DNA from: Rhodoplanes serenus
GTDB taxonomy: Bacteria > Pseudomonadota > Alphaproteobacteria > Rhizobiales > Xanthobacteraceae
Length of the DNA stretch: 64,000 nt
Direction of reading: 5' to 3'
Assembly: GCA_945897515.1 (NCBI GenBank)
Contig: CAMDFO010000016.1
Span: 3,262 to 67,261, forward strand
A model generated the notes under the pieces. That model worked only from the letters and a program-made list of their open reading frames with translations. It did not search any database and was not told where the DNA came from. Below are positions 34,435 through 36,005 of the stretch, piece by piece. The position numbers and the translations under genes are program-made. Within the stretch, counting starts at the first letter, position 1; each line of letters starts with the position of its first letter.

Positions 34435-34444
34435 CTCTATCCAC

Positions 34445-34528
34445 GTCATGGCCGTGCTTGTCACGGCCATCCACGTCTTGCTTCGATCAAAGCAAGACGT
34501 GGATGCCCGGCACAAGGCCGGGCATGAC
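34445..34528. repeat. REP-type palindromic element (GTCATGGCCG / GTCATGCCCGG subfamily)
   Basis: GTCATGGCCGTGCTTGTCACGGCCATCCACGTC...GACGTGGATGCCCGGCACAAGGCCGGGCATGAC. Confidence 0.92.
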
Positions 34529-34554
34529 AGCGAATGCGGAGTGCGAGGCGTTCC

Positions 34555-35868
34555 TCAAATCTGAACGACGTTGACCGTCCGGTCCTCGATCTCGCCGCGC
34601 ACGTGCGCGTAGAGGCGGGGACTGCGCGCCGACAGGATCTGCAGCGCAGCGAGCACTGCATTCGCTGGCTCCAGCACCGTCATCACCGGCACCTTGCTTG
34701 GCGCGCGCAGCGAGGACCAGATGTCCTCGGGGAACTCCTTGGCGCTCGCCGGCACCGTGATGACCGGGATGGTCGACATCGCGGAGATCGTTGGGCCCGC
34801 GCCGTTGGAGCGGCCGATGTAGGCGATCACCACCGTGTCCGGCACCTCCTGCACCATCTTGTGCAGGATGCCTGCCGCCGCGACCGGCTCCTTGTGCACA
34901 GAGCAGGTCACCACCTGCATCAGGTCCGCGAGAGGCCCGAGCGCCTTGGCGAAGGGCTCGGGGTTGTCGCTTTCCGAGCCGCGCCACAGGATGATGCGCT
35001 GCTGCGGAACGCGGAAGTTGCCGGTGATCTCGGCAACCCGGCGGTACGTCGCGGCCACATCGTCCAGCGCGCCGCCGTCGCGATAGACCTGCTTGTCGAT
35101 GTACGCGCCGTTGTCGAGGACGCGCCAGGAATCGTTGTCGATGACGTCAGCGAGCAGCAGGCGGTTCTGCGCGTCGAAACCGAACTCGACCTTGAAATCG
35201 ACCAGGGTGCGGCCTTCGAGCTGCCACGCCTTCTCCAGAACCAGGAACGCCTGGCGCGCGAGCCGCGACATCTCGGGATAGAGCTTCGCTTCGTCGGGGC
35301 GGATGAACACCTCGGAGGTGGCGAGCGTCAGGAACGGCTTCTGCTCAGGGAGCGGCTTCGACGGGACGTAAAGCTCGATCTGCGACGCGCCTTCCTTGTG
35401 GATCATCAGCGGATCGTCGGCGAGCAGCGGCTTGCCCTTCCAGCTCTTGTCCTTGGTCTTGAGGAAGAACTCCACGATCAGCTTCGGGAAAAGCTGGCCT
35501 TTGGCGAAGTGCGGCGTGCGCTTGAGGTACGAGCCGTGCGCCTCGCGCCGCACCACCACCTCGTAAGGGAGCATGGTGCAGCCCGGCGCGATAAACGATG
35601 TCGGGCTGTCCTGCTGCTCGAACGCCACCGGCAGGCCGCAGTCCTTGAGCAGGCGAAACACATTACAGGCGGTGGCGGTGGCGAGCCGTCCCTTGTCGGG
35701 AATGATGTCGTGCTTGGCGCCGTCGCCGGCGGTGATGTCGTCCTTGGCGACCAGCGCGACCAGGTCGGCGCGGCCGGCGACCTGGACGATGCGCTTGGTC
35801 TTGCCCTCGGACACGAGTGCGCCGAGCGAATACTTCGGGGATTGGCGTTCTGCCGTTTGTGCGTCCAC
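34555..35868 (-). CDS. purC: Bifunctional SAICAR synthetase / class II AIR carboxylase (PurC-PurE fusion, PAICS-like)
   Basis: N-terminal EGKTK, KDDITAGDG, EVVVRR..HGSYLKR, LVDFKVEFG, LADVIDNDSWR, DKQVYRD; C-terminal GSESD, SVHK, GRSNGAGP, PVITVP. GTG start after AGGA; ORF-track start is 35898. Confidence 0.92.
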   Translation of the reverse strand: MDAQTAERQSPKYSLGALVSEGKTKRIVQVAGRADLVALVAKDDITAGDGAKHDIIPDKGRLATATACNVFRLLKDCGLPVAFEQQDSPTSFIAPGCTMLPYEVVVRREAHGSYLKRTPHFAKGQLFPKLIVEFFLKTKDKSWKGKPLLADDPLMIHKEGASQIELYVPSKPLPEQKPFLTLATSEVFIRPDEAKLYPEMSRLARQAFLVLEKAWQLEGRTLVDFKVEFGFDAQNRLLLADVIDNDSWRVLDNGAYIDKQVYRDGGALDDVAATYRRVAEITGNFRVPQQRIILWRGSESDNPEPFAKALGPLADLMQVVTCSVHKEPVAAAGILHKMVQEVPDTVVIAYIGRSNGAGPTISAMSTIPVITVPASAKEFPEDIWSSLRAPSKVPVMTVLEPANAVLAALQILSARSPRLYAHVRGEIEDRTVNVVQI

Positions 35869-35882
35869 GACTTTTTCCTGCT

Positions 35883-35973
35883 GTTTATCCAGGACCAATG
35901 GTCCTCAGACCCCAATTAAATAAGGCAATCGGAGGCCGATTTGAAGCCTTCCGTGAGGACCCTGGTGGATAAC
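35883..35973 (-). promoter_or_regulatory. Candidate structured 5' leader of the purC-purE fusion
   Basis: Nested stems UUAUCC/GGAUAA, ACCA/UGGU and GGUCCUCA/UGAGGACC enclose two hairpins and end just before the RBS. Confidence 0.4.
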
Positions 35974-36005
35974 GCAAGGCCGCCCGCCGTCCGGCGGGTC
36001 CTGGC

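Follow-up and report, generated by a model that had tools for sequence, protein, structure and literature searches.

The closest described relatives of the gene considered here are the animal enzyme PAICS and a bacterial class II PurE. In textbooks and recent reviews, animals are said to carboxylate AIR directly with fused PurC-PurE and microbes to rely on PurK together with class I PurE, and this difference serves as a rationale for antibacterial PurE and PurK inhibitors (for example PMC10912719, PMC10484210). In a review of archaeal purine synthesis, fused PurCE is mentioned only as a eukaryotic form (PMC3261824). The structural core of animal PAICS is a PurE octamer, and one noted difference between active sites is an arginine in bacterial class I enzymes as opposed to a lysine in human class II (PMC10484210). 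Channeling of CAIR has been proposed only for human PAICS (PMC8988938). Among bacteria, the class II PurE of Treponema denticola has been characterized (Tranchimand et al. 2011, as cited in PMC10484210). In the literature searched, no described or assayed bacterial fusion of PurC with class II PurE was found, nor was anything relevant on displacement of purK-purE in Xanthobacteraceae or on purine synthesis in Pseudolabrys. Annotation pipelines already name such proteins 'phosphoribosylaminoimidazole carboxylase / SAICAR synthase', and fusions of this type are common among the bacterial entries of databases; the present case is one of apparent gene displacement and not of a new enzyme class.

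A gene of this type was present in the window (i.e., the whole 64,000-nt stretch of DNA that was analyzed), which lies on contig C16, one of 119 in a 4.47-Mb assembly of a freshwater alphaproteobacterium with a completeness of 89%. The features of the gene and its surroundings were as follows.

34555-35868, minus strand: PAICS-type gene of 437 codons plus stop, with a GTG start at 35868 and the stop codon at 34555-34557.
35014-35868, minus strand: N-terminal SAICAR synthetase (PurC) domain, residues 1-285 (Pfam PF01259, E 1.4e-40).
35269-35460, minus strand: extra PurC segment relative to animal PAICS, residues 137-200, which holds KTKDKSWKG and LYVPSKP.
34558-35001, minus strand: C-terminal class II PurE (AIR carboxylase) domain, residues 290-437 (Pfam PF00731, E 1.2e-17).
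34891-34902, minus strand: SVHK motif, in which the class II-specific Lys326 comes directly after the catalytic His325; S, H and K invariant in 67 relatives.
34792-34815, minus strand: GRSNGAGP loop, which takes the place of GGAAHLPG in class I enzymes and corresponds to human PAICS residues 330-335.
35869-36005, minus strand: 137-nt upstream intergenic region, a predicted promoter of the gene's own and 5' leader, with a partly conserved block and an AGGA ribosome-binding site.

We hold with good confidence that this gene encodes a working bifunctional PAICS-type enzyme that was acquired horizontally, displaced purK-purE and is the sole enzyme for conversion of AIR to CAIR in this genome.

The PAICS-type gene is real, intact and conserved, and its PurE is of class II. 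A reading made earlier from the sequence alone had described one open reading frame with SAICAR synthetase motifs followed by a PurE domain. Both the frame and the domain order were confirmed by translation from the GTG codon, which gave a single polypeptide of 437 residues in which Pfam recognized SAICAR_synt and then AIRC (E values as listed above), and all of the motifs named in that reading were found in the translation (KTKDKSWKG at residues 137-145, LYVPSKP, LADVIDNDSWR at residues 239-249, SVHK at residues 323-326 and GRSNGAGP at residues 352-359). An entry of 437 residues in a public protein collection (P0002) was identical from residue 2 onward, the GTG being read there as Met. In an alignment with six close relatives, the GTG start was kept in all six, as was the AGGA ribosome-binding site 5-8 nt 5' of it, and an alternative TTG start at position 35898 fell inside a 12-nt insert specific to the window. 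The frame was free of stops in its own genome and in most relatives. The GC content of the gene was 0.658, that of the window 0.647, and the GC3 of the gene 0.89. Scores with the NCBIfam equivalog models were 89 bits for purC against a cut-off of 190 and 62 bits for purE against a cut-off of 150, which indicates that both halves are strongly divergent.

The 137 nt upstream of the start codon probably provide the gene with a separate promoter and a 5' leader. This region contained a partly conserved block, CTTCAAATC...TTGCC.TA, that was common to the window and six close relatives. A consensus scan of the region revealed no strict sigma-70 promoter, and the one terminator-like hairpin detected was within chance expectation. 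An earlier suggestion of a switch-like leader was not borne out as far as a conserved RNA element is concerned, as an Rfam search of the upstream region gave no match and the 137-nt leader had no blastn match in 80 related loci. Metatranscriptome contigs from two libraries of the source study matched positions 34549-34691, 34778-35069 and 35710-35885 exactly, the last of these stretches spanning the start codon. These contigs are a weak indication that the fusion gene is transcribed, as they could be carried-over DNA; being assembled contigs only, they do not show transcript levels, and stretches that they leave uncovered are uninformative. The fusion gene was also present in lake and freshwater metagenomes from three studies.

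Among solved structures, the best full-length sequence matches of the window protein were PAICS from Bombyx (E 2e-56) and human (E 6e-53), with stand-alone PurCs and the class II PurE of T. denticola (E 4e-6) ranking far behind. An AlphaFold model built from a 41-sequence alignment (pLDDT 91.4, pTM 0.91) gave human PAICS 6yb8 as its best fold match (431 columns, E 1.5e-33, TM 0.71-0.73, identity about 30-32%), and the leading matches 6yb8, 4ja0 and 2h31 extended over 425-431 columns.

Assignment of the C-terminal half to class II, as the sequence-only reading had proposed, was upheld by motifs, trees and fold comparison alike. Native class I PurEs of the same genus carried SAHR and GAGGAAHLPG where the window protein carried SVHK and IGRSNGAGP, and the GRSNGAGP loop was invariant in 67 relatives except for two with G358A. 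Active-site residues of human PAICS were taken from PMC9376930 and read against a sequence alignment. Those listed there for the AIR carboxylase site (Ser274, Ser276, Asp277, Ser301, His303, Lys304 and Gly330-Arg-Ser-Asn-Gly334) were all matched in the window protein, and the corresponding positions were invariant or nearly so in 67 Xanthobacteraceae sequences, the position of Ser276 being mostly Lys. In a tree of PurE domains, a long branch with support of 100 separated class I from a group in which the window protein appeared together with stand-alone class II PurEs and eukaryotic PAICS, so that the grouping with class I PurE that would have spoken against the earlier assignment was not seen. 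In a fold search, T. denticola PurE was the top match among stand-alone structures for the C-terminal half and likewise outranked class I PurEs.

The N-terminal half showed comparable conservation of its active site. The PurC domain aligned to human PAICS residues 8-233 with the ATP-, Mg- and aspartate-binding residues kept. EGKTK, T46, E103, K226, K259 and R263 of the window protein corresponded to the human SAICAR synthetase-site residues G16-K19, Thr40, Glu97, Lys191, Lys228 and Arg232 (PMC9376930), and these positions were invariant or nearly so in 67 Xanthobacteraceae orthologues. The PurC insertion noted in the sequence-only reading is present but is not peculiar to this gene, since it is a trait of the whole bacterial branch: a spacing of about 65-70 residues between DDP and VDFK was found in nearly all bacterial fusions of the long type (here 'group B') and in related stand-alone PurCs. 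The extra segment was absent from animal PAICS and from a second, shorter set of bacterial fusions. It was modeled by AlphaFold as additional beta strands with a pLDDT of about 91-95 and was the least conserved part of the protein, with 68% mean pairwise identity as opposed to 81-83% for the PurC and PurE halves, which were equally conserved.

A search of the genome for canonical purK, purE and purC, which the sequence-only reading had advised, yielded neither purK nor class I purE. The best match to purK in the assembly scored 39.6 bits against a cut-off of 318, and the fusion contained the sole AIRC domain. Canonical purC was present (275 bits) and lay, with purM, purB and purH, on other contigs. 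As judged from these sequence searches, the fusion is most likely the sole AIR carboxylase of this genome, purK-purE having probably been lost.

The distribution of the fusion in related bacteria was followed in the same genome, in 24 other members of the genus and in 16 genomes of the same order that belong to other families. The fusion was carried by 21 of the 25 genus genomes, and both class I purE and purK were absent from 18 of these 21. Genomes with the fusion only included a closed one of 8.2 Mb (G010), with G001, G004 and G007 among those that are 96-100% complete; since complete and nearly complete congeners also lack purE-purK, their absence is not an artefact of assembly. Three congeners (G015, G022 and G024) held the fusion together with class I purE, which indicates that the two routes can coexist; purK was present in the first two of these and was not found in G024. 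Contamination was considered as the source of purEK in G022 and was rejected, as the purEK contig was 77-84% identical to contig C31 of the window's own assembly and so belongs to the genus. Two further members (G002 and G018) carried purE-purK and no fusion, and two very incomplete genomes had neither. All 16 genomes from other families carried purE-purK without the fusion. Of 201 genomes sampled evenly across the GTDB family, 22 had the fusion, as did 9 of the 52 genera, and purK was absent from all of ten further carrier genomes, in which the best match fell far below the cut-off.

The chromosomal position of the fusion in relatives bears on how purK-purE was replaced. The fusion adjoined rpsU, the gene for ribosomal protein S21, in 40 of the 80 related loci, at a distance of 0.5-2.9 kb (5.6 kb in one case), and five further truncated loci had neighbors of the rpsU type. 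In the rpsU-linked loci the fusion lay between rpsU and a gene for an AMP-binding enzyme, the usual arrangement being a GGDEF gene and then the AMP-binding-enzyme and TauE genes. The same interval between rpsU and the AMP-binding-enzyme gene held purK-purE in G002 and G018, and in two genomes from other families (G026 and G027) purK-purE directly adjoined rpsU, with the order rpsU-purK-purE-GGDEF in G027. These findings indicate that, in a large subclade, the fusion fills the slot of the genes that it replaces. In the gene tree, the rpsU-linked arrangement formed a nested clade of about 45 sequences, and earlier-branching lineages, including that of the window, had varied contexts. The fusion may therefore either have landed first at the purEK slot and moved later, or have arrived elsewhere and replaced purEK in that slot at a later time. 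In G004 and G017, the closest relatives in which the interval between rpsU and the AMP-binding-enzyme gene is contiguous, that interval contained neither purEK nor the fusion. The idea that purE-purK is hidden in an assembly gap between C92 and C78 of the window genome was also considered and seems unlikely, as the contiguous sequences of G004 and G017 bridge this junction with almost nothing missing and no purEK.

In the favored reading of a bifunctional enzyme that displaced purK-purE, the class II PurE domain would carboxylate AIR with CO2 directly to CAIR, with need of neither ATP nor PurK, and the PurC domain could then join aspartate to CAIR to yield SAICAR. Other bacteria would have passed the gene, already fused, to an ancestor of a clade of Pseudolabrys-like Xanthobacteraceae from soil and freshwater. 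The fusion would subsequently have displaced the native purK-purE, as its location in the purK-purE slot beside rpsU in many lineages suggests, and retention of the native stand-alone purC would leave the fused PurC half as a duplicate of an existing activity.

This last point admits a reading, in our judgment an unlikely one, in which the essential work is done by the class II PurE half only, the PurC half serves as an oligomer scaffold or back-up, and the SAICAR step is left to native PurC. Every Xanthobacteraceae carrier examined kept a canonical purC that scored above the family cut-off, which may make the fused PurC half dispensable, and a scaffolding function would accord with the PurE octamer that forms the core of animal PAICS. 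The PurC half, however, has kept its residues for binding of ATP, Mg and aspartate invariant in 67 sequences and is conserved as much as the PurE half. Moreover, in Verrucomicrobiota, in CPR and in one other proteobacterial genome no purC besides the fusion was found, nor any other AIRC gene save for one second match of lower score in the proteobacterial genome. As the only SAICAR synthetase there, the fusion must carry out both steps in those organisms. A Planctomycete carrier, like the Xanthobacteraceae, kept canonical purC.

A more far-reaching form of the favored reading, in which both halves are active, is less likely than not and is advanced only tentatively: 'group B' fusions might represent an old line of PAICS-type enzymes in its own right, in which the conserved extra beta structure of about 30 residues in the PurC domain makes assembly or the hand-over of CAIR different from that in animals, with selection for saving of ATP behind their spread and with PurC kept for channeling. 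If so, repeated displacement of purK-purE, here within the purEK slot itself, would spare slow-growing bacteria of soil and freshwater one ATP for each purine made, and the fused PurC would be kept beside native PurC because the carboxylase product is channeled.

Far less probable than reduction to a PurE enzyme is a repurposed role, which the sequence-only reading had raised for an aminoimidazole (de)carboxylase: such an enzyme, or a ligase, would work for neighboring catabolic or transport genes, and the draft would simply lack purE-purK. The sequence-only reading had correctly noted that the gene closes a catabolic-type run with no pur gene nearby. Thus, as annotated with a GC3 filter and Pfam, the fusion ends a minus-strand run of M24/creatinase-like, FAD-binding, luciferase-like monooxygenase, DoxX and class II aldolase genes, an oxidoreductase/aldolase/peptidase-like series, and a plus-strand run of TPP-enzyme and ABC-transporter genes converges on it. 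A class II aldolase homologue was also found upstream of the fusion at one other locus of the subclade (L040), and the assembly is 89% complete. Nevertheless, no loci but the six closest (86-91% protein identity) shared the neighbors seen in the window and the context differed elsewhere, for which reason the idea that the fusion works together with the class II aldolase, DoxX and monooxygenase was rejected. Both purine active sites are strictly conserved, purE-purK is lacking from complete as well as nearly complete congeners, and G004 and G017 have unbroken sequence across the ancestral purEK interval with neither gene in it.

The proposed displacement of purK-purE by a purine enzyme raises the matter of where the fusion came from. 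A whole-library search returned 1857 clusters (50% identity) at E values up to 1e-3 and 466 at E values up to 1e-30, and a search of the ESM Atlas returned only bacterial look-alike clusters. Titles of related records referred to uncultured Xanthobacteraceae, Pseudolabrys, 'Rhodoplanes' and Hyphomicrobiales MAGs. The Xanthobacteraceae fusions formed one clade (70 rows, support 98). Nearest to this clade on the outside were sequences of two small CPR genomes, of one MAG assigned to Proteobacteria and of a metagenomic protein, followed outward by a Verrucomicrobiota/Tepidisphaerales clade and then by very diverse representatives. The sequence-only reading had also allowed for an ordinary, inherited and already described form across the family, and this held in part, with respect to inheritance within a family clade, the pipeline names and the commonness of such fusions among bacteria.

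Comparison sets for domain trees were fetched by means of a distant representative that scored much higher against animal PAICS, and consisted of insect PAICS with a protist transcript, shorter bacterial fusions, and stand-alone class II PurEs from Chloroflexi and DPANN archaea. In the PurE-domain tree, the window protein was placed in a divergent, bacteria-only branch (support 98), and eukaryotes were placed with short fusions in a region that remained unresolved. The PurC-domain tree, in which native purC was a very long outgroup branch, was congruent with the PurE tree. In the full-length tree, the branch of the window protein was one side of a split with support of 99 and eukaryotes were a separate clan (support 96); in the best trees the former branch was set apart with support of 97-99. 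Since the PurC and PurE trees were congruent and both placed the protein in a bacteria-only branch, the fusion appears to have moved as a unit and to have come from bacteria. The match of GC and GC3 to the host genome suggests that the acquisition was old and has been ameliorated. A horizontally acquired, PurK-independent enzyme, one of the two options of the sequence-only reading, is most likely, given the placement in a bacteria-only branch and the lack of purK in the genome.

The domain phylogenies called for in that reading agreed with the class II side of the proposal but did not, in the best trees, place the protein next to animal PAICS. The description 'animal-type' is thus apt for architecture and enzyme class and probably not for ancestry, both halves being in a bacteria-only branch and eukaryotes being, in the best tree, with the shorter bacterial set. 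Transfer of a eukaryotic (animal or protist) PAICS into bacteria is very improbable. In its favor are the shared domain order, the motifs GRSNG[AL]GP and D[IV]WSSL, which are nearer to animal PAICS than are GRSNALS and ILSSL in short fusions and stand-alone class II PurEs, and an AU test that did not reject a tree joining the bacterial branch of the window protein with eukaryotes (p 0.36). Against it, the gene is nested in a branch where many bacterial phyla contribute 50%-identity clusters by the hundred, its branch is one side of the well-supported split with eukaryotes beside the shorter bacterial fusions in the best trees, its identity to human PAICS is only about 30%, and its nearest non-alphaproteobacterial relatives are bacterial.

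If purK-purE was displaced as proposed, a free-living alphaproteobacterial clade has exchanged the microbial route of AIR carboxylation for an animal-style one, a few members carrying both. Location of the fusion in many relatives in a chromosomal slot that elsewhere holds purK-purE makes this a clean and testable case of route displacement, and replacement within that slot adds some evolutionary interest to a fusion that is common in metagenomic bacteria. Biochemical work could also draw on the locus for PAICS-type enzymes of bacterial origin.

With respect to known systems, the window protein shares with metazoan PAICS (human 2H31 and 6YB8, Bombyx mori 4JA0) the order of PurC and then class II PurE and the catalytic residues of both sites, including SxHK and GRSNGxGP, but differs in being only about 30% identical, in having about 30 residues more in its PurC domain and in belonging, in both domain trees, to a separate bacteria-only branch. 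It shares with T. denticola PurE (3RG8 and 3RGG) the class II signature and a host without purK; the latter protein, however, is an unfused, stand-alone enzyme of 159 residues whereas the class II PurE of the window is fused to PurC. The stand-alone class II PurEs in the tree carry GRSNALS as opposed to GRSNGAGP. Native alphaproteobacterial PurK and class I PurE (N5-CAIR synthetase and mutase) catalyze the same step from AIR to CAIR as that assigned to the fusion, but class I PurE depends on the ATP-requiring PurK, carries SAHR and GGAAHLPG and was not found in the window genome. Bacterial fusions annotated with the pipeline name given above are of two types, a longer one in Verrucomicrobiota, Planctomycetota and CPR and a shorter one in Eremiobacterota, Armatimonadota, Dormibacterota, Binatus and CPR. 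The window protein is of the longer type, being 60-65% identical to Verrucomicrobiota/Tepidisphaerales proteins and having their PurC insertion and motifs. Within this type, the fusion is the sole PurC of the Verrucomicrobiota and CPR carriers and of one other proteobacterial carrier, whereas the window genome and the Planctomycetota genome keep native purC, and it is for the Xanthobacteraceae fusion that takeover from purK-purE can be demonstrated, often in the slot of purK-purE itself.

The position of the PAICS fusion was compared among relatives at the slot next to rpsU (L045:6571-9965 and about 40 loci like it; L106, L107, L110 and L111). In many Pseudolabrys-type genomes, represented by L045 and the similar loci, gene order was rpsU (minus strand), a 277-aa gene, the fusion (plus strand) and a GGDEF gene (plus strand); a Pfam search of the 277-aa gene gave no match. 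In relatives that carried the native purK and class I purE pair, the order was rpsU-purK-purE, in some cases followed by GGDEF, in the slot taken by the fusion elsewhere. In the R. serenus assembly itself, a tandem array of four overlapping paralogues, each about 340 aa long, was noted outside the window (contig C78:1543-5499), where they occupy part of the interval between rpsU and an AMP-binding gene that holds either purK-purE or the fusion in relatives.

Two congeners carried the fusion together with a purE-purK pair (L108, on G015:C1, and L109, on G022:C116), and in neither did this pair adjoin rpsU. PurK from these loci was only 57-60% identical to PurK of a third congener, G002; the rest of the G022 contig was 77-84% identical to R. 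serenus contig C31. The purEK pair at this second locus may be transitional or may have been acquired separately.

The window features that bear on the immediate surroundings of the fusion gene were as follows:

35869-36005, minus strand: leader of the fusion gene
34435-34528: nested-palindromic repeat between the permease stop (34434) and the PAICS stop (34555), the two genes being convergent

The sequence-only reading of the leader as switch-like was not borne out, as an Rfam search of the leader gave no match and the sole features common to this leader and those of six close relatives were a promoter-like block and the RBS. A conserved riboswitch is also at odds with the location of the GGACC/GGUCC pairing segment, which lies mostly inside a 12-nt insert found in this window alone. 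The repeat, of about 94 bp, contains …ATCCACGTC…GGCCATCCACGTCTTGCTTCGATCAAAGCAAGACGTGGATGCC… and was matched by 170 segments of the same genome (blastn-short); contig depth there peaked at 1664 compared with about 24 in the DNA runs, and numerous contigs are interrupted at the repeat. It resembles intergenic elements of the REP/MITE type and is possibly a bidirectional terminator.

Stand-alone PurC proteins of about 270-300 aa (P0171-P0271) were noted with the same insertion as the long-type fusions, the bacterial branch that includes the window gene. In the PurC tree, these proteins were scattered among the long-type fusions, and PurC seems to have undergone fusion and fission with class II PurE more than once inside this branch.

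Fusions 63% identical to that of the window were also present in 0.7-Mb "Patescibacteria group" (CPR) genomes (L088:1719-3041 and L092:8001-9305), and these fusions branched beside the Xanthobacteraceae clade. Their GC contents, 0.56 and 0.53 compared with 0.47 and 0.48 for the respective flanks, were 5-9 points higher, which suggests import from high-GC bacteria. In each of these CPR genomes, the fusion is the sole purC and AIRC gene.
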